Positions 8,135-42,918 of a DNA stretch of 64,000 bases are shown here, one piece after another; positions within the stretch are counted from its first letter, which is position 1; the number at the start of each line of letters is the position of its first letter. Source of the DNA: Cycas panzhihuaensis (taxonomy: Eukaryota; Plantae; Cycadophyta); NCBI GenBank assembly GCA_023213395.1, contig CM041465.1:168585741-168649740 (forward strand). The letters are read 5' to 3'. A model generated the notes under the pieces. It saw only the letters and a list, made by a program, of their open reading frames with translations. It had not been told where the DNA came from and made no database searches. Made by a program: the position numbers and the translations under genes.

Positions 8135-8480
8135 TGTAATGATCCTATTCTATTGTGCAGAAGTTGATATGTTATTAGAAGTTAGCTTTTAGGGAGTAGT
8201 ACTTTTAAATTAATTTGAAGTAAATCTATTTATATTAAAAATTTAATATTTTACTTGTAATATTATTATTAAGATTGGTTTTTTAATAGGGAGCTAAATT
8301 GGAACCTATAAATAAGGGAGATCCCTAACTCATTATGTAAGTTTTATTTTTGGGTTAATCTTAATTTTATTTAGAACTTGATCCCTAAGAAACATTTTAC
8401 CTTTTCATTTTTTATTTCAATTTTCTTTTATGTTTAAAGAAATATATCTAATTTAGGATCACTTAAAGTGATATTAGAGC
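8135..8480 (+). mobile_element. Orphan 5' LTR (8135-8466) plus degenerate iMet PBS (8469-8480) of an LTR element interrupted downstream
   Basis: Starts TGTAATGATCC and ends GGATCACTTAA (a decayed inverted terminus), then AG-TGATATTAGAGC. CCTATAAATAAG TATA-like motif near 8305. Partner LTR not in the window. Confidence 0.55.
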
Positions 8481-9647: not shown

Positions 9648-9847
9648 TGTTAAATAATGAGACTTCTTAAATAGATAAGGAAAAGAACTCTCTTCATTGT
9701 TGAGAAAGGCAGTCCTCATTTTTATACACCAAACTTTATAACTGTTACATGGTTAGTACATTAAATGTATGGATTGAGTATAGTAAGGTTTTAATTATAT
9801 TACTCCTCTTATTTAATACACTTATAATGAAACATTATATTCTAACA
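9648..9847 (-). repeat. 3' LTR of copia A
   Basis: TGTTAAATAATGAG...TTCTAACA, adjacent to the PPT complement CCCTCTCTT (9848-9856). Confidence 0.9.
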
Positions 9848-9854
9848 CCCTCTC

Positions 9855-19532: not shown

Positions 19533-22500
19533 TGTTTCCCAGCTACCATGAATGAACATGGACAACATCTCTTAGGTAGGCATAGGTATACATCTCTATC
19601 CCTACTCCTCGTTTACCTTAGGTTGTGATAAAATATTTGATGATTACATTTTGTATGGCATTGTTACATGCATGGTTGAGATGCCTATTTTGTCTGCCCA
19701 TTTTTGTGCATGTGATTATGATCTAGCCTATGATGACTTAAGACCATCATCCTATGGCACTATACAACCCCTCATGACACCTCCTCAGCATTCTCAAGTA
19801 CTCATGGGCCCTGATGGACCACCTTTTATTCACTATTGGAATTATACATGATCCCTAACACCTCATTTTAGGCTTGATCATCTTTATATATATCATTCAT
19901 CCCTTGTTGGGGCCTTTACTACCCTTTTTTACACATTTGGGAAGGTCCCATCAATGTTTAGAGGTCCTCTAAAGGCCTTACCAATCTAGCATACTACTCT
20001 GTAATGCCCTAGAAACTTTCTTTTAGGGGTCCCCTAGGCCTCCCTCTTATTTTTCCTTTTATTTTATTTGCATAGTGACAATATTCATGATACTACAAAG
20101 TTTATTGACCTTCGTAGCTTGGAAACAGATAGTTTTGCATTTATTATGAAACTAGCACATGGTAGACCATTATTTCCCACCTAAAATGAATCTGAATCAC
20201 TTAAGAAACCTAATTTAGGCATAAAAACTTAAATCCAAGTTCATTTTACCACTCTTAGCTCTCATACAAAAGGAAAAATGCCTCCTACCTGTACTTCAGG
20301 TTTTTCTTCCTATTCTTCTCTTCTGTAAGGATGAAACCCTAGAATGTAGCTATGTACTAGCTCTTCTCTAGTAGGTATTCCTTCCATGGTGCTCAATCTA
20401 GTAGAATCAATAAGTTTCACAAGTTTTTTAGCCTCATTCTTGCCTCTAAAAAGGAGCCTTTCTTCACCTAGCAAGAAGGGTCCTCATCTTTTCATTAGCA
20501 CATGAGGTAACATCCATTTTACTTTAGTTTTTTATGACTATATCAAGTTTATTTCTTATTGTTCTCCCATTTAGCAAGCATATTTGATATATATTTCTAC
20601 TTATTGCAAGTTTTTCATACATTTTTATCTCTTTTTAGGTGTCCAAAGGAAGGCAAATTCTTCCTTCCTCCTTGATTGCACCTCCATACCCCTTGGGTTC
20701 TTCTTAGGACATAAGTAGGTGGATTATGGGATTCCTTTGAGAGGGAGAAGAGGAGTCAATGGTTAGGGTTTAGACCCTCATAGCCATATCCTCTAGGGCA
20801 GCCCCCTAACTCTCTTAGCTTTCCTACCTCATATCCATCCTACACACCAAGAAACTCCTTAGGTGAGGGCCACTATTGGTCGTAGCATTTGTAGCACTTT
20901 ACAATGTCTGTAACCAACTCTTATACACATTATTTTGCAACAAGTTTCTTTGTATATTTTGCTATTTTATGATATTTTTATTTCCCTTTAATATCTTGCA
21001 AAAGTTGTAACATAGTGACTTTTGCAATAATTACACTTTTTGTAGCTTTTACAACTTCTTGATCCTTGTAAGTTGCATCACTTTTATTTGCTTAGAATTA
21101 TAAACCTTCTCCTAACTTGTTTCCTGGAGTACCCAAGCATGCAGGAGGTAGATTATTTGAGGGATCTAGCCATTTTGAGGCTCTCCTTTCTCTCACCTTC
21201 AAAACCCCCCTTTTCTCCAAAATATTACTTGGAAATATTTAAGTATATAGTACAAAGATTGAGAAGTGTATTGTTCCTCTTCTTTCATTAAATCAGGAAA
21301 GTTTAAATTTCATTTTGATAACTATATGTACACACATGCACATCCATTTGCGCATGCATATATATGTTATTGCTTGTTAAAAGGGTTTTCCCACAAGGAA
21401 ACTCCTCTTATCATAAGCAAGAAAGATTGTATTGAGAGGTATGTATATCTCATTTACATTTTTTTTCCTTTGAAACTTTCCTTTAAAGTTCTTTGCTATT
21501 TTGAAATACATTCCAAGGAAGGTAAGGAAGCCCCACCTATAGTTTCATCCACAATGCCAACTATGGCTTGGAGCATAGGGTGATTGGCAAAAGGAAGACA
21601 ATGAAGGGAAAGAGAGGCACTCCATCGACCAGCTTGTTTCCATATGCACTTCTTCCAACCTTCCTCTTCCTTCTTATCATTTTCTTCCCCTCTTTCTCTC
21701 CTAAAAAGGAAACCAGTTGCCTTTATACATAGCTTGCAATTATTTATTTTATTTACTCACATCTATCTAAGGCAAAGTATAAAGGAATATTATTTATATT
21801 TGGTCTCTTTGTCTTTGCATTAGTATGTATTGACCTTGTTTCCTCCTTTCCTCTTACATAAGCATGAAAAAGGATAACTTGGGCTAGAGCATCTCTTATT
21901 TCTCTCCTAAAAGGAAAGTGATGGAAAGGGTTTTCTTTTCTTTATTGCACCCTCCTCTTGCATTCACTCCACATATACAAGAGTAGGAATAAGAAAGGGA
22001 ACTTGGGATTTTGATAGTCATCCTTCTTCCATGCATCATTAAGGAAAGTTGCATAGGTCATCCGTACTCTTCCTCTTCTTTGTACCCCCTTTCTCCCTTT
22101 ATTTAATTCCTTTCTTGTTGATAAGGATGAAAGAGAGAGAGAGAGAGAGAGGATAAAAGGAGAGAGAGGTAGAGTATCTTTTGAGTTGCATTTTCTTGGC
22201 ATTGATAGTTTATATTGTTATACTATCTTTAAGTAAGACTAAGATATTACCTAAACCCTTAGTATACTTAGTCCACTTGCTTTGTTTAACCTAAACCCTA
22301 GAGGCATTCCTTTAGGTGATCTTTAGCAAGATGCACCATTAGTCTTGTCTTTTTTTAGATTTGGTTTCCCTTTCATATTATTTAACCAATTATTTCCCTC
22401 TCTTATTATGTAAGGCCCTACGCTATTAGGACTTACCTCTTATTTTCCTCTTTTTTAGGGAATAGATCTTTGATCCTCCCTCTCCTTCTTTCACTCGTCA

Positions 22501-22752
22501 GGATAGGAGAGTCCTTCCTTAGGATACTTAGCAAATCAAGGACACCCTTGCCTAACTCGAATCTAAGAAGGTACTTGCTAAAGGGGAAAGTCTTATCCAG
22601 TATTTATGGGTCTCTAAACATATATTTTGATGTATGGATGCCCTTTATGGGTGACCTATCCCCTTTCCCTCAAGGACCTTTAAGCCCTTGGCATAGTGAT
22701 AGTATAGACTTAATACCCTTATCCTTAGTTACCCCCTAGAGGCGTGCTTCCA
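19533..22752 (+). repeat. 5' LTR of Tat1 (3220 bp)
   Basis: TGTTTCCCAGC...GTGCTTCCA; collinear with 34789-37117 plus 42135-42913. Confidence 0.92.
22132..22151 (+). repeat. (AG)10 microsatellite in the Tat1 5' LTR
   Basis: Read directly; shorter and interrupted in the 3' LTR copy (~42286-42300). Confidence 0.85.
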
Positions 22753-22753
22753 C

Positions 22754-22771
22754 TGGCAACCGTACTAGGGA
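22754..22771 (+). promoter_or_regulatory. PBS of Tat1 (tRNA-Arg-like)
   Basis: TGGCAACCGTACTAGGGA, 1 nt after the LTR; resembles the TGGCGAC...CTGGGGA tRNA-Arg PBS type of Tat/Ogre elements. Confidence 0.75.
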
Positions 22772-23009: not shown

Positions 23010-26000
23010 ATGGAGGGATTCTCTTCAGAATGGTCCTATCATGCCTATATTTTCGAAGCTCAACAACAACCTTCAACCTTCTTCTAGGGTCCCACCCAAG
23101 AGGGAAATGATCCTATATTTTATCCAAGTGACTGGAAGTACTCAAGTATCTACTGTCTCCCTACACATGGTGTAGGGGCTTCTTCTCTGATGGGATATCA
23201 CCACCTTGGTGAGAGTGCCCATGAGAATCACCTTGTGGGGTGTACTTAATTTAAGGAACCTTTTACCTCATATGAATAAGTAAGAACCCCTCCTATAGAT
23301 GTAGTGGAAGTATTACACCAATGCTTCTAAGTTGCAAGTCTCCAACCACCCCTAAAGTGGTTGGAAAGTATCTTGCATGGTGTAGCGCCTTCCTCTTCTG
23401 CATCTACACCTCCTTATTCCTCCCATTCCACTTTGATATCCATAATAGGGCCATCCCTTATTCTTTCTTCTTCCTTATGTATCCCCCATACTTTAGGGAC
23501 TACCCGAGGTATACTCACCTCCTAAATTAGGTTGAGTATACCTCCTCCTAGCCAAGTGACTGTGTCTCAACTAATCATGGTCCATCCATCTCTAACTTGA
23601 CCTAAGGGACCTTTATTTCCCCCTTCTCATAGCCATGTAGGGAACATCCCCATACATTCCCAACCTCAACCTAGGGATCCTTCTCTTTATGTACCCCTGG
23701 GATACACTTCCCAATCATGGGGGCATGGAAAGGGAAATATCCTTCCTATCTATGGGTGGACTCCCTCCACCCACATGCCATTTCACCACCTATAGGTGGT
23801 TCATATGGGCAGAATCCTATTCCACACCCATCTATTTCATCTTCGTATGTCACCTTGTATGTAGTGCCTTTGTAAGGAGGATAGACTCCTCCCCAAGGCT
23901 CCTTTCCCCAAGTTCCCTTTCAATAAGGGGCATACCCTTAAGGGGGAATGGGTCCCTCTTACCCATTCACCACTCTCCTAATTCCTCCTCATTTAGGATT
24001 AGTCCCTTCCCATCAAGGGGGAGGGAATTCATATCCCCCTTTTAATCAAATCTCTTAAGAAGGATTTAGGTATCCATGTCCACCTCCTCCTTTGTCTTTT
24101 ATTGACCCATCAGTTTAACCAAGGGCCCATCCCTTCATTGACTATAGGTTAACTCTTGTATCTATCAAGGCATTAAGGACCAACTTACCACCTCATTCCC
24201 CTAAGGTGCCCAAGTTTTATGGGACCTCTTTGCAAGACCTAGCCGAGCATGTTAAGAGTTTCTCCATGGCATGTATTGATTATTGGGCCTATGATCATAT
24301 CTTAATGAAACTTTCTCCATGTTCCTTGTAGGATGATGCCCTTAAGTGGTTCTATTACCTCCCTTCGCATTCAATTCATTCATTCCAACAACTAGTGGAT
24401 GAGTTCGTTAACTATTTTAATACGCCCTTAAGTGGTTTTGTTGCCTCCCTGCCCATTCGATTCATTCATTCCAAGAACTTGTGGATGAGTTCGTTAACTA
24501 TTTTAATATTGCTCATCCCTTTAAGAGCAAAATGAAAGCCTTACTTTCCTTTAAACAAGGTCACGAGGAGATGAACTGTGACTTTGTTAAGTGCTTTCAT
24601 GATCTTGTTCACTCCACGAAGGCCACATTGCTTGAGGAGCTAAAGAGGGATCTCTTCATGAATTCCCTCCATCCTGAGGTATATGTTGAGGTCTGTAAAA
24701 TGGGGGCAACAATATATAATTCTGCCATAGCTAAGTACTTGGCTCTTGAGGCTATTTAGATCCAAGTAGGTCTCAAGAAACCTCTTAAACCATCACAATG
24801 ATGAGAGGCACCTCCTCCATCATATGACATCAAACCCCAACAACTGTAAAAGTCTTCAACCCACTCAATGAAGAAGACTTTAGATCCCTTGACCTCTGCC
24901 ATATATTCTTTTGAACATATGATAAAGGAGCTTAAGCTTCGAGCTCCTCCCTCATTACCAAACTCCCATAGACCTATTCACTAGGCTTCCTAAGTAGCAC
25001 CTCCTAAGGATGGAAATACTCATTCCTGTTAAACAAGGAAGATTAAGCCTTCCTTGAAAAAGAAGCGGTGCTCCATCCATGGTGACTGCTTTCATAAGGA
25101 CTCGCAATATAGGGCACAATGCTCTAAAACTTCTCCACATCATGATTCCTCCCCTAGGCAAATATCTAAGCCCAATCTAGACTAGCATATCCATAGAGAT
25201 CCCTTCCCCAAACATGGGGAATGAGATTAGCATACCTAGCATAGAGGGAATTAGAATAGGGGAAGATCTCCTAACCCTTATCCTATTCAAGCTAAAGGGA
25301 AGGAGAATAGAAGTTATTCCTCTTCTTATGATTCTTGCCATCGAACCCCTTCACCTTCTCGATCTTAAAATAAAGGAAAGAAAGTCATCTAGATGCTCGA
25401 GACCATACCCATATATGCTTTGACTAGGTCTCAAGCAGCTAAAGAGGCCATAGGTATCTCTTCTTCTTCTTATCTTGATCCTCCCTTAAATAACCCTCCT
25501 TCTAAGATTCCTTTACTCCCTAAGTCCATTCTTGTCTACCTGGGTCAATATGATTTTTGAAGGGTACTTCCCCAACCAATTGTGAAAGGGAAACCCTTCT
25601 CAATCATAGATGAGTTTCATATTATGGCTGTAAGGATGTTTATGATGGACATCTTAAGGAGTTGCCTAGACCAATATGCTCTCCTTTTGGAGACTTTAGG
25701 TTTGGTGGATATATCCATCCATGCTTTGAGTGTTTCCCTAGGTTGGGAGCCCATCGTCTCTTTTAACCTTAAAGATCTCCCCCTAACCAGTGAAAGGGAA
25801 TACCAATGGCATTACCCTTTCACCATATCTATAGACACTCCTGAGTGTACCCTCAAAAGAACTATTATGGACAATGATTCTTCTATTAATGCTATACCTT
25901 TATGTATTATGTAGGAGTTAGGTATAATAGCTCTTGAGCCAGTTTCGTGGCATTGTCAAGGCTATGATAATAATAAGAAAATGCCCTTAAGTTATGTCTC

Positions 26001-29000
26001 CATCCCTCTTACCCTTGAGAACAAAACCATCCTCACTAATATTATGGTCCTTGATGTAGACATGGACTACAACCTTCTATTAAGATATCCATAGCTTGAC
26101 TAGATGGGAGCTATGTATTTGTCCCACTGGAGATAGCTCAAATTCATCCATGAAGGATGAATAAAAGTTGTTTCCTAGGAGCCTCCTCCCATTAAACAAT
26201 TGTACCAATCCCGTCAAGAAGTTTATGATCCAACAAAGGGCAATAAAGGCCCATCCACTCATGCTTCCACCTACATGATCGATATTCCTAGAACTTCCTG
26301 CTCGAAGGAAGGACCTTCCTCTTCCTCTTCTAACCTTATTCGTTTTGTCCCCATTAGTGTAGGGAGTTATGGGTACCTTATCATTTTGAGCGATGATGAG
26401 TCTAATGGTGAGGACAAGGATCTACCTCATCCTATATCCCTCCTAAATACTCGTAGGCAATGCTTGCTTTATTCTAGGTCCCAACAGAAAACCCCTTCTA
26501 TTAAGGAGCCCAATACTCCTACCAAATCACGCATGGTTATTCCCATCTCTTGTGTGACTTCCCAAACCACTTCATCATCCACCATGTCACCTTCCTTAAG
26601 TAATGAGGGTAGGGGACCTCCTATCCCACGATATAAGAGGGTGCTCTTTGACTCTTTTGAAGAGTCCCTTGACTATATCGAATGGTGGGTTGACTGTTAT
26701 AGGCCCATCGCTCATCCTGCTTCTCGCTCCTCATCCTCTCCAAGTCTAACTATCTATGGGAAAGACTACTTCGAGAATGATAAGGCATTACTAGAAGATT
26801 TACCAAGCTCCACGACCAACCTCCCTCTTGGTCACCATGAGCTTGGTTACTAGAAGATCCTAGCTCTTGGGTCATCCCTAGCTAACCTAAGCCAACCTAG
26901 TTCCTCTTTGCCTCTTCCTATTGACCAAGCCCCCCTCCATTTTGAGGAGAGGAATGCTATGTGCATGGGGGCAACCAAGGACATTGTCCTCATCCCTGGT
27001 ACAGTCATCAAGGTAGGAGCAAAATGTTCCCCTGAAGAAATAAAGGAATACACCCTCCTTTTTCAAGAGTTATGTGATGCTTTTATATAGGATTACACTA
27101 ACGTGAAGGGAATAGATCCCTTCACTGTCACTCATAATCTTACGACTATCCTAAGAGCTCATCCTGTGTAACAAAAGTAATGCCCCCTTCATCCTATGCT
27201 GTCTACTACCATTAAGATGGAAGTTGAAAAACTCTTAGATATAGGGTTGATCACTTTTATTGATTACCCTAAATGGGTCTCCAACATTATTCCCATTACT
27301 AAAAAGAATGGAACGATTTGGATATGTGTTGATTTTTGAGATATCAATAACATATATCCCAAAGATAACTTTCCTCTACCTTTTATTAATTAGATTATTG
27401 ATTGCACTACCAGATTCAAAGTCATGTCCTTGATGGATGGCTTCTTTGGTTACAACTAGATCCAAATCTCTCCTAAAGATGGTCATAAAATAGCCTTCAC
27501 TCTTCCTTGGGGTACCTTTGCTTAGAAAGCGATGCCCTTTGGACTCAAAAATACATGTACCACTTACCAAAGGGTGATGCAATTTATCTTTCATAATCTC
27601 ATAAATAAAACCCTTGAGGTCTTTATGGATAATATGATGGGTCTTTCTCGTAAGAGAGCCCATCACCCTGAGGATTTATATGCCATCTTTATTCAATGCC
27701 ATAAATACCACGTCTGCTTAAACCTGCTCAAATGCATATTTGCCATAACCATTGGTAAACTCTTCAGTTTCCTTGTTTCTAAACAAGGAATCCAAATAAA
27801 ACCTGATAAGGTCAAGGCCATCCTTGACATATCTTTGCCTAAAATGCAACATCAAATTATGTCATTTTTGGGTAGGTTGGGTTTCCTTAAGTGTTTCCTA
27901 GTAAACTTTGGCATAAATGCCAAGCTCATTACTAACCTATAGGAGAATGGAGCCCTATTTATTTAGTCTCCCAAGGCCTAGGAAGCTTTCTAAGAGCTCA
28001 AGAGAGCCTTGGCTTCTACCTCAATTTTGGAAACACCTCTCTTTGATCATCGCTTTATCCTTTATACCTTAGTAATTGATGAATCCTCGAGGGCTATGCT
28101 TGCCTAAGAGGATGATTTGGGAACTAAGTAAGCCATTTATTTCATCAGCCATATACTAGTCACTACTGATCTTCACTACTCTTCCATAAAAAAGGAGTGC
28201 CTCGTCTTGGTCCATACTACTAAGAAATTTAGGTACTACCTACTTAACAATACCACTTGGGTAATTGTTTAATCTAATTCCTTGAGATGCCTCTTAACTT
28301 GATCTTACTTAACTTATAGGACTAGTAAATAGGTCATCCTCCTTTAAGAGTATGACCTTCAAATCATCAATAGGAAATTGAGAAAGGAAATGGTAGTCGT
28401 TGAACAACTAGTTGATGTATCTATTACTAACTCTTCTAATATTCTCGTTGATGACTCCTTACCTGACAAGCTTATCCTTTCTATCTGAGACTCGCCATCC
28501 CATCTATTAGCTAGTAGTGAATGGTATGGGGACATTGTATAATACCTTACTAAATAGTAGTATCATCCTAATTCTAGTGACAAGATGAGGTCACAAGTTA
28601 GAGCTACTACTAGGCAGTATTTCCTCATTGAGGAGGTATTGGTCCTTCTTCATTATGTTAAACCTGATGAGGCAAACCAAATACTTCATGAGTGCCATAA
28701 CAACATTTGTGAGGGCCACATTAGAGGCCAATCTATGGACCATAGGATCCTCTACATGGGTTATTACTAGTTGTCCCTTTTCAAGGATGCCCATGCATAT
28801 GCATTGCATTGTCATAGGTGCCAAGTGCATTCCAACATCATTCATTTGCATTCTAAGGCCTTACACCCACCAAATCATCTCTTTATGGCCTTTTTCCCAA
28901 TGGGGATTAGACCCTATTAGAATCATAACCCCTCCTTACTCATTGTAATATAAGTTCATCTTGACTACGACAGAGTACTTTACCAAATGGGCCAAAGCGG

Positions 29001-29749
29001 TCCCTCTATCATCTATTGCTAAAAAGACCATAACCACTTTCATCTACCAGCATATTATCTATTAATTTGAGGTTCCAGATGTCCTAATAATAGATAATGG
29101 TGCTCCCTTTTGTAATAAGGAGATGGATGAACTTTGTAGGAAGTTTAGAATATCCCACAAAACCTCTTCTCCTTATTATCCCTTGGTTAATAGACAAATT
29201 GAATCTTTTAACAAAACCCTTATCAACATCTTAAAGAAAACTGTGGCTTAATCCCAAAGAGATTGGTACCTCCAGCTTCCTTTTACTTTATGGGCATATC
29301 ACACTTCCATTTACATGGCTCCAGGGATGACCCTATTCTCCCTCATATATGGGACCAAACTGGTCCTCTCCTTGGAAGTTAAAATCCTTGATTTATGTGT
29401 TTCTCTTTAAGGTCTCATCGATGAGGAGTCTTATCATCAAGCTTGCCTCCTCGACCTTAAAGCCTTGGATGAGAGATGCTTGATGGTATACCAAGAAAAC
29501 CTCACCTCCAAGGCTAGGTCATAAATGACATATAACAAATGTCTTCATCCTTGCCCTCTAAATCCTAGGGACCATGTCCTCAATCTTGAATATCTCCATG
29601 GTTGCTTATCCAAATTTAGGCTTAAATGGATCAATTCTTTTGCCATTCTTAAGAGCCTCGACAATGGTTCCTATAGGATAGTGACCCTAGAGGGTCTCAA
29701 ATTTGAGAAAGCTGTGAATAGTAAATTCCTAAAGATGTTCTATGTGTGA
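23010..29749 (+). pseudogene. gag-pol: Tat1 gag-pol (start approximate)
   Basis: PKFYG...DDALKWFYYLP (gag), CSIHGDCFHKDSQY (CX2HX4HX4C knuckle), IMDNDSSINAIP (PR), MPFGLKN...FMDNMM (RT), LHECHNNICEGH and WPFSQWGLD (INT), end AVNSKFLKMFYV*. Confidence 0.92.
24338..24509 (+). repeat. 86-bp tandem duplication inside Tat1 gag
   Basis: GCCCTTAAGTGGTT...TATTTTAATA(C/T) starts at 24338 and again at 24424. Confidence 0.9.
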
Positions 29750-30796
29750 CCCTTTCTACTCCTAAACAGGATAGGCACACCTCTCTCTCACTCTAAAATG
29801 AGCCTAAACTACCACTTTAAGTGCATCATCATTTCTCCTAGTCACAAGTGTAATGATGGTTTAAAGTAGCCCTTCATCCTTTTGACTTTGTTACTTGTAT
29901 TGCATCTCTTATCTCCCTCCCGAGGGTGTCCTCTCCTTTCCTAGTTGGGTAAGCAAACCTCCTTCACTTCTGAGTATGGAGTCACTCCCCAACTATGGCT
30001 TTTTTTTGCTTGGGTATCCACACCCCCTAGTCATTGCTTCCTTTGCATATCTATTATGTTCTTCCTAATGAACATGTGTAGCACCTCCCTCCTAGTCTTA
30101 TACATATCCATCATCGACATATATGGTGATTATATATGCCTAATATAAGTGTGGTGTTGTATGGAAAGAAGCACGAATATCATCTACATATGATCTAATA
30201 ACAAAAGCCATATATAATAATTAACTAAAACTACCTAAATGCATGACCCCTTGTGCATCTGTACACCTATATCCATATGCATATGCTCATCTCTCTATGC
30301 ATCATATAAATAAATAAACTATATAATAGTAACGCAATAACATCATAAATCAATCACAATATCATCTTCATGTATCAAATGGGGTACCAATTATCCCTCA
30401 TCTATATATATACAAAGTTATACGATACAACAGAATCATATGGTATATCATCAGTTAGGCAATATAACTTAGGAAGATGGAATCCTTGCAGGGAGGAGTA
30501 CAATCATATGTTTAGATGTGCTAAAAGCTCCCTAGAGGTATGAAGCTTTCTTATCTAAAATCCACAACATATAATCTCCTGGATGCCATGCTCTCAAGGG
30601 GTGTCATCCCCTCATCTATGGGATCCCTCGCTGGGGGACCAGATATCTCCTAGGCTCATGTGGCATCATTGCGAGCTCCCTGCCTCACTCTCCTACTCTT
30701 GAGGTCTCCTTTAGGTCATTGTCATGGTATGTGATTGGTTGCATGATGACCTGGTGGCAATCTGCTCTACTAATTAATCGTATCTAACCTAGATAT

Positions 30797-30798
<2 letters not shown>

Positions 30799-30836
<38 letters not shown>
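30799..30836 (+). repeat. (TC)19 microsatellite
   Basis: Read directly. Confidence 0.9.
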
Positions 30837-30839
<3 letters not shown>

Positions 30840-31239
30840 ACTCCATGGAGTCTCTCCTCCAACACAATAATCTGAATCCTGCTCTCTGCATCCTTGCTTG
30901 ATCCTCCTCCCTAGGCCTCCGGTCCTTATACCTAGCTCTATAGGATGCCTCCCTTAACCACTAGTTGGTCCCTCTCTTCCTATAGCCCATCCAAGGTGCC
31001 CTGCAGTTGGCTGACCCTTGCCTAAAGCTCTTGGGACTTTGCCACCTATATATCCATAACCCAAATCAGTAGGGTGAATGTTGTTATATGTGGCCCCACT
31101 GATCAGCGCTCTTCGCTAGCTAGGATGGGAGGATGCCCCTTCATATAAACCTGGGGGAATAACTTATATACTATCACCTCCAGTAGCCTTGCTATCTCTG
31201 CTACCCCTACTAAACCATGCATACTATATGTCAGTCAAG

Positions 31240-31278
31240 TATATATGTATGTGTGTGTGTGTGTATGTGTGTATATAT
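31240..31278 (+). repeat. Mixed (TA)/(TG) microsatellite inside predicted intron 2 of the antisense gene
   Basis: TATATATGTATGTGTGTGTGTGTGTATGTGTGTATATAT read directly. Confidence 0.8.
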
Positions 31279-33304
31279 AAAAGCATCAAAATCCAAATAA
31301 AACCATCTAGGGAAGTAGTAAATGATTGAAAGTACATTTAGTCAGGATAGAATCTCACCTCTTGGGATGATTGGATCCTCTACCTAGATGATCACCTCAT
31401 CTGCCATGGCTCCCCCTACTACTGCCTTTATCTCCTTGACCTCTGGCACTACCTTGCTTATCACCTAGGCTGCTAGAGCATCTCCACCCTCTAATCCCTC
31501 CTCTCCTAGGATCTCTCTATCTACGGAAGCTATTTCCACCTATACCTCTTCCACCATAGCCATCATTGTTGCTAGGGCTCTACTTGTAGCTCTCCCTCTA
31601 CCTATTGGTCCTAGTGGTCGCCTATTTCCTCCTGCTAATGTTGATGGACTTGCCTTATCTCTTGTAGCTCTTGATGGTCCTGTGCCATCCCCTCCATCTC
31701 CTCCATCATCGTCAACACCCTCATCATGTTCATCTCCTAGCTCTTTACCCTCATCATCACTTTCCTAGTGGATCACTTAATAAGGATCCACTGTATAGTC
31801 GATCAGGGTTAAGAGATCTAGCGATGTTGCTACCACCAATCGCTACACATGAACTAGGTTCTTAGCCTCTGTAAACCTCGTCTGCCACGTATGAACCATG
31901 GGAGCCTTAGCTAAGATGAGATGTGGTCCTCCTGGTAGTTCCACCACTCTGAAATGGTCAAAACAACAATAGTGGAATAGCGTGCAATAAGAGAAACCCC
32001 CTGCCCCAACTACTATATTTAGTTGAGTTATGGAATCAGGTTGGTTGCTATTAAGGTAGCCAAATCAAACCTCTATCCAGCCTTGCACCTCTTAATAGTG
32101 GTCATCTAGCCTCCTAAGATGTCCATGTAGTTCTATTTCTAGGATATCTAGAATAGAATAGTCAAAGTAATGAGTTTCCTTACACGAGGAACTCTAGATA
32201 AAACCATCGCCTAGACTGAGACTCCCCATCGATCTTATTACCCCTACCTTATAAAGAATTTAGATGCATCCCTATGGGTAGCATCTATGCTAGGTAGTAT
32301 GCTTAATAATGCTAGAATCCCACCTGATGATACACCCAGGATCCTCCTGATATCCCCATGTATGATAAATATATCTCACACTTGTAGGAGGTGAAATACA
32401 TGCCTCTGTCAATCCTAGTGTGAGATGATTTCAACTAGGAGGCACTAGTTGGATGCATACTATGGATTCCTAATGACCTTCAGAATCCTACAGTATCGTA
32501 GAGTCATTTGCTCCTACTATATCATCATCTCAATAAAACTCATCATCGCCATGCCTATATTCTTGTGGTCACCATGCCTATATTCTTAAAGTTATCAATT
32601 GTGAAAATAACCTGCAAATAAAAAAAAGCTAGTCAGAGATCCACTAATCCCCTCTACCATGTGCCATTCTCCCCTTTTAATGGTTGAGGCTCCATCAAGC
32701 TGGGTAGACTCATCCATCAGGGCATCTCTTCTCTTTTTCTCCTATCCAACATTCACCCCGTGCCAAACTCTATGGTACTGTAGATATTGATATGGGTCCC
32801 ACTAAAAAAAATTATATTTTCTTGGTGGCCATGCTACAAACTTCACGACATTGCGACATTTATCGTAAGGTCATGGATACCCCCCTAAAATGGGGGGTGG
32901 GGTGGCCTAAAAACTCAAAAGAAAAATCTTAAGTGGACCAAACTTGGCCCACTAGGACCAAGGCTACCTAATACCCTATTCCTCCCCTTCCCTGGGCCTC
33001 ATTTGAGTTCCAAGGGGTCTCGATCACCCATATGGGGCCTAAAATAAACTTTAAAAACTAAAAAAGTCCATTAAATAAAATTGATGAAATGAAATAGCTA
33101 GGGGATAGTCCACTCACTAGATCAGGCGTGATCGCTACCATCTTGTCTCCACGATCTCAATGGTTATTCTCTCTCCCTGATCCAATAGCCGGATCTCTCA
33201 TTGGATGCTCCCAAATACTGGCATAGCCTTGCTGCATAAAAGAAAGGGCTTCAGATCTCTCATGGGGGCCTATGAAAATGAATCCTATTTTCACCCTTCT
33301 CCCC

Positions 33305-33518
33305 TTTATATATGTGGGGTCCCCTAGGGGCACCACCTCCTTTCTCCTCATCGCGATAGCCCTCAGGATCATCTCCTTATCCTCACTCACTTTGTCTTTA
33401 GGGTCTGACCCTTATTTTGCTCCTATGGCCTTCATTTTACTCCTTTCTAGTGCATTTATGGCGATCCCTTTAGCCTCCTAGAGGCCCCTTGTGCCTTATT
33501 TTTTACATTGCTATAAAA
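33305..33518. promoter_or_regulatory. Putative divergent promoter region between the antisense PMD gene and sense aRH
   Basis: TATATAAA on the minus strand (33312-33305) and TATAAAA on the plus strand (33512-33518), pointing away from each other. Confidence 0.45.
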
Positions 33519-33700
33519 TGTGCCAATGTTTATACTCTTTTAACTTATTCCAGTATCTTGGATCTACTTTTCCCATTCGTTTGAGCCTTTAAGGCTCCTA
33601 GGGGAAGCCCCTCCTCCCTTCCAGGCCTCCATAGGCCCCTTTGTGACCCTAGGGGCTCTGAAGGAGCATACATACTAATCCTTTCTCACCCTTTCATCAG

Positions 33701-33769
33701 GTAAGCCTCCCTTGAGCCTAGTAGCCTACCCCTATGGCTCTCTTATCCTCACACAATTTATATTTACAG
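33701..33769 (+). other. Putative 69-nt leader intron upstream of the Tat1 aRH ORF
   Basis: CAG|GTAAGC donor, CTCAC branch-like motif, TATATTTACAG| acceptor, 103 nt before the ATG. Confidence 0.5.
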
Positions 33770-33872
33770 TTTTTTGAGCTATCGTAGCCCTGTCACTACC
33801 CCTTTCTTTTGCATCTTGACTTTACTGTCACTATCTCTTCTATCGCTTAACTCAAACTCTATTCTTTTTACT

Positions 33873-34295
33873 ATGGTATTACTCATCTTCACTGACAGAG
33901 GAAGTCAAGGCAACCCCAAACCTTTTGTAGCTACGTGGATCCTCTGTGATCCCTCTAGATATAACTATATGTATTTTAGAATCTTTCTACTCCAGGCTAC
34001 GAATAACAAAGATGATTACATAACTATTATTGAAGACCTTACCGATGCACTTCACTCTTACCATGGGCCTATCATCCTCTATTTTGACTCTCAGATTGTC
34101 ATGTCATAACTAACCCAGGTTTACTAAGTATGTTGCCCATGATTGAGAGCCCTTACTTCAACCACCAGGTCCCTTTTATCTTGCTTCTCTTTCATGGATG
34201 TTTGACACATTCCCCAATATCTTAATGTTAAGGCAGATGGCCTTGTATATCGCATCCTCAAGAATCATCTCCTTCTCTCAGATGACCCCTCCTAG
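33873..34295 (+). pseudogene. Stand-alone archaeal-type RNase H (aRH) of Tat1
   Basis: MVLLIFTDRGSQGNPKP...QATNNKDDY...YFDSQIVMS*L...HIPQYLNVKADGL fits the DG.SRGNPG / TNN.AEY / DSQLVV.Q / H+PR..N..AD.L pattern. One frame, 141 codons including the terminal stop; internal stops are all C>T explicable. Confidence 0.9.
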
Positions 34296-34778
34296 GTAGC
34301 CTAATAAGTCACTTAATCACCTAGGCTCTAGGATCATCCTTTCTTCTATTGCGATCTCTTCACACCTTTGAAAGTAGGAAACTAATGAGATTAAATTATG
34401 GTGACCACTAGGTTTATGTCTCCACTTTGTCCTTTATACTACCCGTGGCATGAGGCTCTTGCACTCTGATTCTCTACATGTACAGATCTTTGCTTATATT
34501 TATTTGTTGGTTGTGCTTATGACCTTGTATAATATTAATCTTACATGAGGGTGATAGGGGCAGTCCCCTCATCTCGTCATCCTTTTACACCAAACTCTTG
34601 GGTGACGTACAGGCAGCCCCTATGCTGCCCCTTCCTTTCCTTGTCCACGTGATCCACCACGACACCTACGACTCCCCTTGGATGATGATACTTTTTGCAT
34701 TGGTAGATGATACTAATCTTTTTATGTTGATAGCATCTGCCATCACCAGATGCTTCCAAGAGATGAAGCTCTATTGCT

Positions 34779-34788
34779 AAGGGGGCAA
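34779..34788 (+). promoter_or_regulatory. Polypurine tract of Tat1
   Basis: AAGGGGGCAA immediately before the TG of the 3' LTR. Confidence 0.85.
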
Positions 34789-37117
34789 TGTTTCTCAGCT
34801 ACTAAGAATGGATATGGACAACGTCTCTTAGGTAGGCATAGGTATATATCTCTATCCCTACTCCTCATTTACCTTAGGATGTGATGAGATGTTTGATGAT
34901 TATATTTTGTATGGCATTGTTATATGCATGGTTAAGATGCTTGGTTTGCCTACCCATTTTTGTTCCTATGACTATGATCTAGCTTATGACAACTCAGGAC
35001 CATCATCCTATGGCACTATATAGCCCCTCACGACACTTCCTCAACACTCTTAGGTACTCATGGGCCCCTGTGGCCCACCATTTATTCACTATTATCATTA
35101 TACATGATCCCTAACACCTTATTTTAGGCTTGATCATATTTGTATATATCATTCATATGTCATTGGGGCCTTTACTACCCTCTTTCACATATGTAAAAAG
35201 GTCTTACCGATGCCTAGAGGTCCTCTAAAGGCTTTACCAATCTAGTATACTACTCTGTTATGCCCTAAGACCCTTCTTTTGGGGGTCCCCTAGGCCTCCC
35301 TTTTATTTTTTCTTGTATTTTATTTACACTATGATAACATTTGCAGTACCATGACAAACTTTGTGGTGCCATGAAGTTTACCATGAGGTGATTGTCTATT
35401 GATCTTCGTGGTCTTGTAATGGCTAATTTCACATTTATTACAAAACTGACATATGGTAGACCATTGTTTCCTACTTAGAGAAAACCCTAATCACTTGGGA
35501 AACCTAATTTAGGTATAAAAACCCAAATCTAAGTTTATTTTACCTCTCTTGGCTCTCATATGAAAGGAAAAATGCCTCCTACCTGCACTTCTGGTTTCTC
35601 CTCCTATTCTTCTCTTCTCTAAGGATGAAACCCTAGAATGTAGGTCTGTACTAGCTCTTCTCTAATAGGTCTTCCTTCTATGGTACTCACTCCAATAGTA
35701 GCAAAAGTTTTCACAAGTTTTTTATCCTCATTCTTACCTCCAAAAAGGAGCCTTTCTTCACCTAACAAGAGGGGTCCTCATCTTTTCATTAGCACATGAG
35801 GTAACATCCATTTTACTTTAGTTTTTTGTGACTGTATCAAGTTTATTTCTTGTTGTTCTCCCCTTTAGCAAGTATATTTGGTATATATTTTCACTTATTG
35901 TAAGTTTTACATCCATCTTTATCTATTTTTAGGTGTCCAAAGGAAGGCAAGCCCTTCCTTCCTCCTTGATTGCACCTCCATACCCATTGGGTTCTTCATG
36001 GGAAACAAGTAAGTGGATTGTAGGATTCCTTTGAGAGGGAGAAAAGGAGTTCATAGCTAGGGTTCTAACCCTCACAACCATATCCTCCAAGGCATCCCCT
36101 TACCTCTCTTAGCTTTCCTACGTGATATCCATCTTGCACACCAAGAAACTCCTTAGGCCAGGGCTTCTATTGGTTATAGCATTTGTAGCCCCTTGCAACG
36201 CCTACAATAAACTCTTATACACATTATTTGGTAGTAAGTTTCTTTGTATATTTTTCCATTTCATGAGATTTCCATTTCCCTTGCATATCTTGTAAAAGTT
36301 ACAATATTATAACTTTTGTAACATTTATACTTTTTACAGTTTTACAACTTCTTAATCCTTGTAAGTTGTGTCACTTTTATTTGCTTAGAATTATAAACCC
36401 TCTCCTAACTTATTTCTTAGAGTACTCGAGCACATAATAGGTAGCTTATTTGAGGGAGCTATCCATTCTGAGGCTCTCCTTTCTCTCACCTTCAAAACCC
36501 CTCTTTTCCCCCAAATATTACTTAGAAACTTTTAAGTATATAGCGAGAAGATTGAGAAGCATATTGTTCCTTTTCTTTCATTACACTAAAGAAGTTTAGA
36601 TTTCATTTTGATGAGCATGTGTACACATAATTACATCCATATGCACATGCATATATATGTTATTGTTTGTTAAAAGGGTTTACCCACAAGGAAACTCTGC
36701 CTACCATAAGTAAGAAAGATTGTGTTGAAAGATATATATATCTCATTTACATTTGTTTTTCTTTGAAACTTTCCTTTAAAGTTCTTTTCTCTTTTGAAAT
36801 ACATTTCAAGGAAGCTAAGGAAGCCCTAACTATAGTTTTGTCCACAACACCAATCGTGGCTTATAACATAGGGTGATCAGTGAAAGGAAGATAATGATGG
36901 GAAAGAGTGGCACTCCATCAACTGGATTGTTTCTAGGTGCACTTCTTCCAACCTTCCTTTTCCTTCTTATCCTTTTCTTCCTCCCTTTCTCTCCTAAAAA
37001 GGAAATCAGTTGCGTTTATACATAGTTTACAATCATTTATTTTTTTTACCCACATCTATCTAAGGGAAAATATAAAGGAATATCACTCATATTTGCTCTC
37101 TTTATCTTTGCATTAGG
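34789..37117 (+). repeat. 3' LTR of Tat1, left part
   Basis: TGTTTCTCAGC..., collinear with 19533-21823; interrupted by copia C. Confidence 0.92.
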
Positions 37118-37761
37118 TGTTGGATATTGTGACAACAATATTTTGGGGCTAAAATTTTGGCATGTTTTCGGCGCGGTTTCCCCCTAATCTTTCTCGGGGG
37201 GTTCCAAGGGGGGCAGGAGCCCCCCTTGGCTAGGGGGTATGGGGGATGTGGAATGCCCCCCGCTAAGAGGGGGTTTGGGGGTGATAGCCCCCGACCCAAA
37301 AAATTAGCCCTGTAAACCTTATTAAATTGTAAAGAGAATCAGGGTTGTTTGATACAAATACCTTAGATTCTACGGCTGAGATTTATGCCTTAGATATTCC
37401 TCTCATGTAGCCCATTTTAGGGATTTTCTTATTATATTGTAATATAATGTAATGTACTGTGAAGAGGGCAGTGGCTGGTTGTTGTTCCAGAGAGCATTCT
37501 ACTACTGAGATGTACTATTTCTCCATTCTAAAGCAATAAATATTGATACCTTTCCTATGTGGATGTTTTCCTAGTACACTGCTAGGGTTTTACCACATTA
37601 TATTAGGTGCATATGTGATGTTTAGCTTGTATATTAATGTTATTGTATTATCTCTATTTTCAGAACTTGCTGTTTAAATCTTAGTTTTAATTCCTATAAC
37701 TAGTTGTAAAATAGTTCAGATCTTATGGTGGTTTAAGGTTTACGGCCTTGTAATTTCAACA
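37118..37761 (+). repeat. 5' LTR of copia C
   Basis: TGTTGG...TTCAACA, 644 bp. Confidence 0.95.
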
Positions 37762-37831
37762 AGTGGTATCAGAGACACATTTATTTTTTAACGAGTTTGT
37801 AAAGGTCTTGGTGTTGGCTTTTCTACACCAA

Positions 37832-40800
37832 ATGGTGAAACTAGTAGGTGCAAAGTTTGAGGTGAGAAATTCAATGGCAAGAATAACTTCGAGTTGTGGA
37901 AGCTGAAAGTGCATGATATTCTTATACAGCAGGGTTTGTACAAAGGCCTTGCATACAAATCAAAGAAACCCATACGGATGGACGATGATGATTAGGATGA
38001 CTTAGACAATAAGGTACTTAGTACAATATGACTGTGCTTGGCAGATGAAGTCTTGTTTAACATCACAGGGGAAGAGAAAACAGTAGGATTATGGACCCAG
38101 TTGGAAGGCATGTATATGAACAAATCAGTAATGAATCGAATCTACTTGAAGAGACAACTGTACTCATTACGAATGATGGAAGGTATAAAAATTGTTGACC
38201 ATTTAAATATTTTTAATACTCTTATTTGTTAGTTGACTAGTATCAATGTTAAAATTGAGGATGAGGACAAGGTTATTACCTTATTATGGCCATTACCCAA
38301 ATCCTGGGATAATATTATCATCTCAATTAGTTTTAGCACTACAAATGTATTGGATTATTATTCTATTGTGAGTGCTTTGCTAATGGAAGAAGTGCAAAGG
38401 AAATCTAGTTTTAAAACCTCCACACCAGAAGCCATGACAGTAAGAGGTAGAATGTTTGAGAGAGGACAAAACTCTAGGGATACATCAAGATCCAAGTCAA
38501 AGAGCAAAAAGAGTAAGCTCAGGTGCTGGCATTGTAATAAGATCGGTCACCTCAAGAAGGATTGTTACAAATGGAAGGAGTTCTAGAAAAAGGAAGATCC
38601 TGCCAAGGAGGCGAATCAAGTGGAGTCAAATCAAGGTATGGATGATGATGTCTTGGTTGCTTGTAATGTTTCTCATTATCACCATGACTGGTTATTAGAT
38701 TTAGATGCTTCGCACCACATGTGTCCACACAAGAGTTGGTTCTCATCATACCAACCTGTTGATGGTGGTGATGTGCTTATGGGAAATGAAGTTTCTTGTA
38801 AGATAGTGGGCATTGGTAGCATCAGAATTAAGATGTTCGATGGGGTAGTCAGAACATTAACTGAGGTTAGACATGTACCTGATTTGAAAAGGAATAAGAT
38901 TTCCTTGGGTGAATTAGATTCAAGTGGTTTTAAGCATATAGGTCATGAAGGAGTCTTAAAGGTGTCAAAGGGTGCCTTGGTTGTTATGAAAGCCTTAAAG
39001 AAAGGAAATCTTTATATTTTAGTGGGAAGTATAGATGTCAGCCAAGCAACGACAGCATCAAAGACTGTAGAAGATCCAGCTCAATTATAGCATTAGAGAC
39101 TTAGGCACATGAGTGAGAGAGGACTTAAGGTGCCGATAAACCATAAGTTGCTTCCTAACTTGCAGCTTTTAGATTTGACTTTCTGTAAACATTATATTTT
39201 TAGAAAGCAATGTAGACTCAAGTTTAAAGTAGGGAGTCACACTAGTAAAGGCGTTCTAGATTACATACATTCAGATGTATGGGGACCATCCCCTAAAATA
39301 TCATGTGGAGGATCATTGTATTATGTCACATTTATAGATGATTACTCTAGAAAGGTATGGGTCTATTTTTTGAAAAGGAAATCTGAAGTTTTCAGTGTGT
39401 TTAAGTAATTCAAGGCTCTAGTTGAGAATAGTACTGGTAAGTCAATCAAATGTTTAAGAACTGACAATGGAGATGAGTTCAACTCCTTGGAGTTTAAGAA
39501 CTATTACAGAGAAGCTGGGATTGAAAGACACAAGACCACTAGCTATACTCCATAGTAAAATGACATTGCTAAGTGCATGAATAAGACACTCTTAGAAAGA
39601 ACAAGAAGCATACTAAGTAATATAGGAGTGGAGTAGGGCTTATGGGCAGAAGCTGTTCAAGCAGCTTGCTATCTAGTAAACAGGTCACTAACATTTGCAA
39701 TAGATTACAAGATTCCTGAAGAGGTATTGACAGGACATCCATATGATTATTCAAATTTAAAAGTTTTTGGTTGTGATGCTTATGCCTTGACTGACAAAAG
39801 TAAATATTTAAAGTTAGACCCAAAATCGAGGTATATCTTTGTTGGTTATGGTGATAAGGATGGTGTGAAGGGATACAGGTTGTGGGATCCTACTGCCCAC
39901 AAAATCACCATTAATAGAGATGTTGTATTTGATGAATCTCCCCTTCTAAAATCAGACAGTGGAGAAGTTGAAATGGCCCAGGCGAAAGATGAACATCAAT
40001 AGGTCAAGTTTGAAACCCAGCCATTTTTAGAATTAGAAGAGCAGGAAGATATTTTTGAAGATGAATATGCAACATATTTATAAGAGTATGTGGATAGTCC
40101 TTTGCCAACAGTTAGAAGATCTACACGAGTCAGTCATCCACCTAACAGTTACAACCCATCTACTTCTATTACTTTGGTTTTTAATGATGGTGAGCCCACA
40201 TGTTATCAGGAAGCAGTAGATGATATCCATGGTGAGAAGTAGAAAAGGGCTATGTAGGAAGAGATAGATGCTTTGAAGAAAAATAATTCATGGGACTTGG
40301 TAGAACTTCCACATGGCAGGAAGATTATTGGTTACAGGTGGGTTTTAAAAAAGAAAATAGATGTTGATAGAAAGGTTAACAAATATAGGGCAAGATTGGT
40401 GGCTAAAGGCTATGTACAGAAAGCAAGTATTGACTTTCTTGAGATCTTTTCCCCAGTTGTCAAACTTGTTTCAATTCAAGTGCTGTTAGCATTAGTAGCT
40501 TCTCTTGATTTGGAGCTAGAGCAGTTAGATGTAAAAATAACTTTTCTACATGGAGATTTAGATGAAGAGATCTATATGGATCAACCAAAAGGGTTTGTAC
40601 AGGATGGTAGAAAAAGACTTATTTGTAGGATCAAAAAATCATTGTATGGCCTAAAGCAATCACCTAGGAAGTGGTACAAGAAGTTTGATGCCTTCATGGA
40701 GAGCTAAAATTTTAAAAGAAGTGAGTATGATCATTATGTTTACTTTAAATTTATGGATAATGGCTTATTCATTATCTTGGTACTATATATTGATGACATG

Positions 40801-41441
40801 CTAGTTACAAGCAAAAGCATGGAAGAAATCAATAAGCTAAAGGCTCAACTAGCTAGGACTTTTGACATGAAGGATCTAAGAGCTGTAAAATAAATCCTAG
40901 GCATGGAGATACATAGAGACAGGAAAAGTGGTAAGCTATGGTTATGGTAATCAGCTTTGGAGGTACAAGTAATCAGGTTTGTGGATATATTGATTTAGAT
41001 TTTGCAGGAGATTTAGATAAAAGAAGGTCTACTTCAGGTCATGTTTTCACTCTTGCAAATGGTACAGTTAGTTGGATGTCCAAATTATAGAGCACAATTG
41101 CATTATCAACAACAGAAGTTGAATATGTTGTTGTAGCACATGCTTGTAAAGAAGCAATCTGGTTACAGGGTCTATTAGTTGATCTTGGAAGGAGATGGAA
41201 AAATATAAAGGTATTTTGTAATAGTCAAAGTGCCATTTATTTAGCCAAGAATCTGATTTATCATGGTAAAATAAAGCATATTACTCTTAAGTACCATTTT
41301 GTTAGATAGGTTGTGGAAGTAGGTGGAGTGGCACTTGAGAAGATTCACACTAATCAGAATTATGATGATATATTCACAAAACCAGTACCAGTAGAGAAGT
41401 TTAAATGGTGTTTGACTTCTCTTGGCTTGCAAAAAAGATGA
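37832..41441 (+). pseudogene. gag-pol: copia C gag-pol
   Basis: EKFNGKNNFELWKLK, CWHCNKIGHLKKDC (knuckle), WLLDLDASHHM (PR), HSDVWGP...FIDDYSRKVWVY (INT), RARLVAKGY, QLDVKITFLHG, SLYGLKQSPR, YIDDML (RT). Internal deletion near 40945. Confidence 0.95.
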
Positions 41442-41489
41442 TGAAGGGTCCATAAAAGGTATCGGGTAAATTATTATCAAGGTGGAGAT

Positions 41490-42134
41490 TGTTAGATATT
41501 GTGACAATAATATTTTAGGACTAAAATTTTGGTATGTTTTCGGTGTAATTCCCCCCCCAAATCTTTCTCGGGGGGTTCTAAGGGGGGCAGGAGCCCCCCT
41601 TGGCTGGGGGATGTGAGGGGTATGGAACACCCCCCACTAAGAGGGGGTTTAGGGGCAATAGCCCCTGACCTAAAAATTAGCCCTATAAACCTTATTAAAT
41701 TGTAAAGAGAATCAAGGTCATTCAATACAAATACCCTAGATTCTACAGCTAAGATTTATGCCTTGGATGTTCCTCTCATATAGCCCATTTTAGGGCTTCT
41801 CTTATTATGTTGTAATGTAATGTAATGTACTGTGAAGAGGGCAGCAGTTGGTTGTTGTTCTAGAAAGTATTCTGCTACTGAGATGTATTGTTTCTCCATT
41901 TTAAAGCAATAAAGATCAATATCTTTCCTCTGTGGGTGTTTCCCTAGAACACTGTTAGGGTTTTACCACGTTACATCTGATGCATATGTGATGTTTAGCT
42001 TGTATATTGATGTTATTGTATTATCTCTATTTTTAGAACTTGCATGTTAAATCTTAGTTTCAATTCTTATAACTAGTTGCAAAATAGTTCAGATCTTGTG
42101 GCGGTTTAAGGTTTAAGGCCTTGCAATTTCAACA
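41490..42134 (+). repeat. 3' LTR of copia C
   Basis: TGTTAG...TTCAACA, a copy of 37118-37761. Confidence 0.95.
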
Positions 42135-42913
42135 GTAGGAACAAGAAAAGGAACTTGGGCTTTCGATATCCATCCTTCTTCCATGCATTATTAAGGAAAG
42201 TTTCATAGTTCATCCATACTCTTCCTCTTCTTTGCACCCTCTTTCCCCCTTCATTTAATTCCTTTTCTATTGATAAAGATAAAAAAGAGAGAGGGAGAGG
42301 ATAAAAGGAGAGAGAGTGAGAGTATCTTTTGAGTTGCACTTACTTAGCATTGATACTTTATATTATTACACTATCTTTAAGCAAGCCTAAGACACTACCC
42401 AAACCCTTAGTATACTTAGTCCACTTGCTTTGTTTAACCTAAACCCTAGAGGTATTCCTTTAGATGATCTTTAGTAAGATTCACCATTAGTCTTGTCTTT
42501 TTCTTGGATTTCATTTCTGTATACCAAATCCCTTTCACATCTTTCAACTAATTATTTCCCTCTCTTTTCTATAAGTCCCTACCCTATTAGGGCTTGCCTC
42601 TTCTTTTCCCCTTTTTTAGGGAATAAAACTTTGATCCTTCCTCTCCTTCCTTCACCTATTAGGATAGGAGAGTCCTTCCTTAGGCTACTTGGTAAATTAA
42701 GGATGCCCTTGTCGAACTCAAATCTGAGAAGGTACCTGCCAAAAGGGAAAGTCTTGTGTGTTATTTGTGGGTATCTGAACTTGTGTTTGGATGTATAAAT
42801 AGCCTTTGTGGTTGACCTATTCCCTTGCCCTAAAGGACCTTTAAGCCTCTGGCATAGTAATAGTGTAGGCTTAATATCCTTATTTTTAGTGACCCCCCAT
42901 AGGTGTACTTCTA
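42135..42913 (+). repeat. 3' LTR of Tat1, right part
   Basis: Collinear with 21983-22752; ends GTACTTCTA (decayed GTGCTTCCA). Confidence 0.9.
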
Positions 42914-42918
42914 GGTAG

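Follow-up and report, generated by a model that had tools for sequence, protein, structure and literature searches.

Predicted exons and introns of the antisense gene

The DNA stretch analysed here, referred to as the window, comprises 64,000 nt of AT-rich plant repeat DNA from Cycas panzhihuaensis (assembly GCA_023213395.1, contig CM041465.1, positions 168,585,741-168,649,740 of the forward strand). It contains a TatIII-like copy of a Ty3/gypsy long terminal repeat (LTR) retrotransposon with a broken antisense gene in its 3' interior. The gene joins a region like the plant mobile domain (PMD), an acidic stretch and a putative coiled coil; that it likely has three exons and that its product likely acts on the chromatin of its own element is a reading we hold with moderate confidence. 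Its features were placed as follows.

33305..33312, minus strand: TATA-like box, upstream of the exon-1 ATG by 171 nt; the minus strand of the 12-kb interior has eight such motifs in all
33118..33141, minus strand: predicted coding part of exon 1, MVAITPDL, 24 nt, phase 0 (from sequence and phase)
32612..33117, minus strand: predicted intron 1, 506 nt, GT-AG, with a branch motif and a T-run before the acceptor (from site rank and relatives)
32542..32587, minus strand: 23-nt tandem duplication (32587-32565 / 32564-32542), private to this copy (from sequence and related contigs)
31359..32611, minus strand: predicted exon 2 with the PMD-like region (about 32564-31780), an acidic D/E/G stretch (about 31765-31690) and a low-complexity linker
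31998..32015, minus strand: one-base frameshift in or just before a G-run (homologue tails change frame)
31207..31358, minus strand: predicted intron 2, 152 nt, GT-AG, 69% A+T, with a CA/TA microsatellite (from signals and composition)
30790..31206, minus strand: predicted exon 3, including coiled-coil-like heptads (31045-30962; from the heptad score); 3' end provisional

The TATA-like box also reads TATA on the plus strand (33307). At the other end of the gene an (AG)19.5 repeat at 30799-30837 and many stops precede 30450, the proposed gene end.

The splice dinucleotides named in a preliminary description of this DNA, GT 33117/AG 32612 and GT 31358/AG 31207, were all present, with CTGAC 20-27 nt before both acceptors. 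As it had also stated, neither intron length is a multiple of 3; 506 and 152 nt both leave a remainder of 2. Both predicted introns have the features of the U2 type, i.e. GT-AG ends, branch motif and pyrimidine tract. A branch-like motif lies near 10% of all AG in the window. The splice sites were ranked with a rough weight matrix among the 8656 AG and 5734 GT sites on both strands of the window. The acceptor of intron 1 at 32612 ranked first of all 8656 AG. For intron 2 the donor at 31358 ranked 53rd of 5734 (top 1%) and the acceptor at 31207 ranked 189th of 8656 (top 2.2%). Intron 2 has an A+T content of 69% between flanks of 52%, while intron 1 with 57% is barely above its flanks.

The reading frames were followed across the predicted junctions. 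Exon 2 is disrupted by stops, the duplication and the frameshift, and no open reading frame (ORF) of at least 120 codons overlaps the gene, which was correctly said to be missing from the ORF track. Past the 23-nt duplication, and not before it, MVAITPDL shares the phase of the PMD-like frame, as described before, a coincidence with a chance of 1 in 3. The shift of one nucleotide postulated near 32000 was recovered independently, for the tails of both homologues that reach the site continue in the next frame from 32007 (scores of 42 and 30 vs at most 19). At the second junction the end of exon 2 (phase 1) leads from the acidic frame, again as claimed, into the one exon-3 frame with heptads. 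The heptad score of this frame was matched by 2 of 200 shuffles; in the other two frames 188 and 163 of 200 shuffles did so. Intron 1 is well supported on the acceptor side. Intron 2 is moderately supported by its splice signals, its A+T composition and a join that selects the sole heptad frame; together with the putative coiled-coil exon it rests on this one sequence.

Homologues and related copies

The PMD frame (32564-32016, 183 codons) was compared with 1.84 billion proteins by phmmer. Ten matches had E ≤ 0.001. Seven of these are short natural relatives that aligned in register over the whole stretch, led by P0002 (E 1.4e-25) and P0004 (E 5.7e-21), and the remaining three are unrelated long repeat proteins. 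The sole Pfam family found in P0002 and P0004 was PMD (PF10536; E 1e-4 and 2.9e-5), with colinear alignments that span positions 38-179 and 1-67 of the profile, in the order to be expected. Ginkgo is the source of one of the seven, a gene model. Another gene model from Ginkgo, Gb_09756 (P0012), was obtained by a profile search; its best family was PMD (E 0.031, 13.9 bits), and its acidic motif aligned weakly with the acidic stretch of the copy (E 0.014). The named homologues are Ginkgo gene models only, with 26-30% identity.

The PMD frame contains 18 stops in 183 codons, more than either of the other frames. Fourteen of the 18 stand opposite Gln, Trp or Arg in a homologue, compared with 42 of the 165 other columns (p 2e-5), an excess which is expected because methylated cytosine deaminates. 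The frame with the fewest stops (P0001) was rejected as the PMD frame throughout, since upstream of 32000 the homologues follow the frame given in the preliminary description.

The assignment to PMD is weakened by the Pfam scores of P0002 and P0004, 22.1 and 23.8 bits, which are below the cut-off of 34.9. Five of the seven in-register relatives match no Pfam family, and the frames of the copy itself, read with X at stops, gave no PMD match with any of six and of seven queries. The earlier claim of an antisense PMD gene in a Tat element is supported indirectly by the natural homologues and has a counterpart in the published TatIII ORF (see below). We conclude that the gene probably encodes a remote PMD-like domain, visible through its relatives at scores under the formal Pfam threshold.

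Searches of Protein Data Bank (PDB) sequences with alignment A1 and with P0004 yielded nothing meaningful. Two AlphaFold models were poor (pLDDT 53 and 41), and a fold search with the first gave a best Z of 3.1. Related loci were found neither among metagenome contigs (329 pattern matches) nor among viral contigs (8 matches), and none of the 26 loci from a DNA motif scan was related. The window itself holds no second copy.

Related contigs were collected from three DNA runs of three organisms, with the comparison extended to 33700. Each run contained 8,831-10,159 related records, mostly less than 95% alike, and all 30 bins of the region were covered. Because thousands of related contigs in three organisms cover the region, the gene is a high-copy family trait. 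An RNA run contributed eight short partial records that matched the region. The contigs argue strongly against the view that this copy alone captured a host gene or a fragment of a DNA transposon which plays no part for the element. Introns would be expected in a capture at the DNA level, and PMDs occur in host genes and MULEs (PMC5418596). Yet besides the contigs there are distant relatives in Ginkgo, position and strand match the published TatIII ORF (PMC4408406), and the window contains no inverted repeats of at least 40 nt. A single-copy capture is already largely refuted and we regard it as highly improbable.

The contigs also speak to the introns. In all three organisms loose contig ends at 32563/32569 enter a T-rich tract followed by YAG, which lies 23 nt nearer than in the copy. 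Thus the relatives share the acceptor of intron 1, and only this copy has the duplication. Twelve of 36 small indels were listed, and eight of them are 1-nt changes in intron 1. The four in exons are a 3-nt gap in exon 3 of one relative, a -1/+1 pair 3 nt apart and one at the frameshift site. One related contig differed in length by 1 nt at 32015. Among the listed joints that recurred in two runs, four of five fall within intron 1 and skip 70-119 nt, none of them a multiple of 3. In three runs related contigs match up to 33143, two bases beyond the exon-1 ATG, and then jump.

Two blocks stood out by contig depth. At 32944-33027, inside predicted intron 1, depth was 8,000-12,800, equal to that of the most conserved PMD motifs, and the block is a candidate conserved cis-element; a similar motif occurs on the minus strand near 33040 and 33270. 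Depth reached 13,130 at 30372-30743, at the 3' end of the antisense gene, which may represent a conserved C-terminus, a 3' untranslated region (UTR) or a sense-strand signal.

Several observations weigh against the three-exon model. The donor of intron 1 at 33117 is middling (rank 849 of 5734 GT; top 3% for its intron side). The eight intron-1 indels crowd into 50 homopolymer-rich nucleotides and are not independent, and intron 2 yielded no indel row, its repeat being skipped. The spliced joint was absent among the joints listed (15 of 252 and 15 of 187), which come from DNA runs. Word-index protein searches found no homologue for the latter half of exon 2 (among 5645 candidates, lengths 229-730) or for exon 3 (among 2358 candidates, lengths 75-242), weak evidence in both cases as the queries are decayed. 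Finally, the first residue of P0004 and of P0006 is a Met that falls a little way into exon 2, so that exon 1 may be non-coding. Overall, what the preliminary description observed is largely right, and its interpretation is supported in part.

The position of these Met residues, just before a conserved NIGM motif, would fit an intron 1 that is real and lies in the 5' UTR, with translation from a Met a few codons into exon 2 and MVAITPDL non-coding; the preliminary description had missed this possible start codon. The middling donor points the same way, and additional strong acceptors (33232, 33039 and 32907) suggest that the 5' end may be more complex. On the other hand, beyond the duplication the phase of exon 1 fits the PMD-like frame, P0012 of Ginkgo has an N-terminal extension of similar length that starts with MV, and the related contigs of three runs continue past the ATG. 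Moreover, the starts of the homologues are presumably automatic ORF calls blind to introns. We therefore rate a 5' UTR position of intron 1 as rather unlikely.

Similarly, the gene might consist of one ORF with nothing but PMD, ending shortly past 31358 like the published TatIII ORF, with intron 2 and the heptads being due to chance or to a separate remnant. Exon 3 has neither a homologue nor a match in Pfam, an in-frame stop sits a few codons into predicted intron 2, and TatIII ORFs are described as PMD without a coiled coil (PMC4408406). This is opposed by the ranks of the donor and the acceptor of intron 2 with their branch motif, by the rise in A+T over both flanks and by the join to the one frame with heptads. 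In addition, the related Ogre elements carry PMD and coiled coil together (PMC4408406). We consider the PMD-only ORF improbable, and the gene model with both introns, as far as the DNA can tell, is the one we hold with fair confidence.

The TatIII-like element and its detached RNase H

The following features of the element are all on the plus strand.

19533..22752, plus strand: 5' LTR with TG...CA ends (84% identity to 34789-37116 plus 42130-42911)
22754..22771, plus strand: decayed stretch like a primer-binding site (PBS), beginning with TGG 1 nt past the LTR
24418..29749, plus strand: decayed gag-pol with gag, reverse transcriptase (RT), Ty3/gypsy RNase H (RH) plus integrase (INT), stop at 29747-29749 (Pfam Retrotrans_gag, RVT_1, RT_RNaseH, Integrase_H2C2, rve)
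33701..33706, plus strand: sense splice-donor-like site CAG/GTAAGC, 172 nt before the ATG of the archaeal-type RNase H (rank 1 of 5734 GT)
33873..34295, plus strand: archaeal-type RNase H (aRH), 140 codons, own ATG, four internal stops (Pfam RVT_3, PDB matches)
34789..42913, plus strand: 3' LTR, interrupted by a nested Copia element (LTR comparison)
37118..42134, plus strand: nested, near-complete Ty1/copia element, LTRs 87% alike, outside the present finding (repeat comparison, Pfam)

Without the nested insert the element is 18,364 nt long. The distance between its LTRs was 0.174 (Kimura two-parameter, 2290 columns), and its observed/expected ratios showed a depletion of CG (0.21) and CAG (0.42) and an enrichment of TAG (1.31). 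The copy is old, dead and ordinary as a repeat. LTRs, PBS and the order gag-RT-RH-INT identify it as a Ty3/gypsy retrotransposon; a protease was not detected by Pfam in the element. The RT motif has what we take to be a Tat-like look. An aRH within the element places it in the Tat clade, and the position of the aRH (33873-34295) downstream of the integrase stop at 29749 corresponds to the marker of gymnosperm TatIII, aRH after integrase (PMC6317226). No aRH turned up in the protease-RT interval or in that from RH to INT. On the other hand, the aRH is not fused to the C-terminus of Pol as described in PMC4408406.

The element is flanked by GGTGGT and GGTAGT (19527-19532 and 42914-42919), a 6-bp match with one mismatch that resembles a target duplication. 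Target duplications of 6 bp made up 0.4% in the REXdb survey; the 39 TatIII elements had a 5-bp duplication in 92% and a tRNA-Arg PBS in 64% of cases (PMC6317226). Where the nested Ty1/copia element is inserted, the 3' LTR lacks about 155 nt that the 5' LTR has. Gag contains an 86-nt tandem duplication at 24338-24508. A serine/proline-rich spacer of about 250 codons (about 26170-26900, plus strand; no match in Pfam) occupies the protease-RT interval, where TatI and TatII have their aRH. Elsewhere in the window lie decayed gypsy-like remnants at 17120-19290 and 57875-60060 with 65-71% mutual identity, partly alike the RT region of the main element.

The aRH, which the preliminary description had overlooked, is matched by Pfam RVT_3 with E 1.1e-5 and 25.8 bits, above the cut-off of 21.6. 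Its best PDB matches are archaeal-type RNases HI (4e19, E 9.3e-10; also 3u3g and 3hst). Its ATG coincides with the start of free-standing RNases HI, and the 140-codon frame is of their size. From the integrase stop to the aRH there are 4123 nt, with the entire antisense gene in between. Upstream of the aRH are a TATA-like stretch at 33513-33520 and a pyrimidine-rich tract. The aRH may be a gene of its own that diverges from the PMD gene; the second RNase H of the element is a sense frame apart from Pol that is likely expressed from its own or a spliced subgenomic RNA. A limit of this reading is that the detached aRH was seen in this copy only, because the contig comparison stopped at 33700.

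Two other origins of the frame were considered. A Pol-aRH fusion by way of one long intron is unsupported, the best donor score near the integrase end being 1.0. A LINE fragment as the source of the aRH is unlikely, with no RT match in 33140-34790 and no poly(A) after the aRH.

Relation to known elements and possible role

An antisense 3' ORF that holds a PMD has been published for gymnosperm Tat lineage III (Ustyantsev 2015, PMC4408406). In REXdb a long antisense ORF was reported for 18% of 39 TatIII elements with a 250-codon ORF search (Neumann 2019, PMC6317226), a search that would miss or truncate spliced genes. The present element shares with TatIII the large LTRs, the aRH downstream of integrase and the antisense PMD-type ORF in the 3' interior. 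It differs in three respects. The published aRH is located at the C-terminus of Pol (PMC4408406, PMC6317226), while here it has an ATG of its own and is separated from the integrase stop by 4.1 kb. The published ORF is PMD only, with introns unmentioned in the available text, while here two introns and a coiled-coil exon are predicted. Finally, the published length is 12.7-17.3 kb compared with 18.4 kb. The comparison of the order is based on text descriptions, and an arrangement like the present one may be depicted in the published figures or in Additional file 1 of Neumann 2019.

Ogre elements (Tat lineage V), with 431 PMD matches by ORF search (PMC6317226), have the same predicted PMD-coiled-coil domain order on the same strand and in the same position between pol and the 3' LTR. 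However, they are angiosperm elements with the aRH between RH and integrase, their antisense ORFs are reported as single, and the known intron of Ogre, which separates gag-protease from pol, is a sense-strand one. Antisense accessory genes are likewise represented by gene23 of maize Grande and TRP28 of Retand; gene23 is driven by an internal promoter of its own, and its product is nuclear (PMC7264820). Yet their domain is TRP28, not PMD, and the term intron is absent from the available sections of the 2025 Retand survey (PMC11963269). In the literature covered, which excludes subscription journals and Repbase entries, we found neither introns in plant Tat antisense ORFs nor, in searches not aimed at it alone, an aRH with a coding frame separate from Pol. 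An antisense ORF with PMD was known before; what appears to be new is the predicted exon-intron structure, the predicted coiled-coil exon of a TatIII-like element and the separation of the RNase H from Pol.

How might such a gene work? An internal promoter like that of Grande gene23, which the gene most likely had and of which the TATA-like box at 33312 may be a part, would drive a minus-strand transcript from which both GT-AG introns would be removed. The introns would persist in new copies because, given the LTR replication cycle, the packaged and reverse-transcribed RNA is the opposite strand and has no introns there. The coiled coil might oligomerise the protein, and the PMD fold might bind DNA or chromatin in the manner of VANC of MuDR transposons. 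VANC is reported to be structurally homologous to MAIN and has been modelled as a coiled-coil oligomer (PMC13547354). VANC belongs to DNA transposons (VANDAL/MuDR), and MAIN and MAIL1 are angiosperm host genes. PDB sequence searches and the fold search with a poor model gave no sequence or fold match to VANC, so the comparison concerns the way of working, not membership. A nuclear product would keep its own element expressed, while the detached RNase H, translated from its sense RNA, would join the particle in trans.

An anti-silencing role was earlier proposed for PMDs encoded by transposable elements (PMC5418596, PMC8616336). Given the gene, we tentatively favor an anti-silencing or self-activating role, at a little under even confidence, because those proteins of the fold that have been characterised regulate chromatin in the nucleus and a structural homology of VANC with MAIN is reported. 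A point against it is that the host PMDs MAIN and MAIL1 promote silencing and that the literature found shows no PMD of a transposable element countering silencing. Even with a correct gene model the protein might act elsewhere, in particle assembly, nuclear import or integration targeting, or the antisense RNA itself might regulate. Such roles have been proposed for antisense ORFs of plant elements (PMC7264820), and according to PMC5418596 the function of PMD is unknown. Yet MAIN, MAIL1 and VANC all act as nuclear chromatin regulators (PMC8616336, PMC13547354), and coding constraint argues against a role as RNA only. We judge these other roles less likely than an anti-silencing one. A bolder and rather doubtful proposal is that of a gymnosperm Tat lineage with a back-to-back pair of spliced genes, an antisense PMD-coiled-coil anti-silencing factor and a free-standing aRH that acts in trans. 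The antisense factor would then be the retrotransposon counterpart, and a possible forerunner, of VANC and MAIN.

A review of 2020 considered it an open question what antisense accessory genes do in LTR retrotransposons of plants and urged a search for spliced antisense transcripts (PMC7264820). The spliced gene model predicts exact junctions that can be tested in gymnosperm RNA, and surveys based on ORFs may undercount such antisense genes. If the model is true, the introns explain why ORF searches found the antisense gene in just 18% of TatIII elements and why the coiled coil was missed. The PMD-coiled-coil fusion would then predate the angiosperm Ogre lineage, and overlooked exons may have produced the published order of events, in which PMD came first and the coiled coil later. 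The finding also bears on the question of whether host PMD silencing factors derive from Gypsy elements, and for the replication complex of an LTR element, an RNase H with a frame separate from Pol would be an uncommon design.

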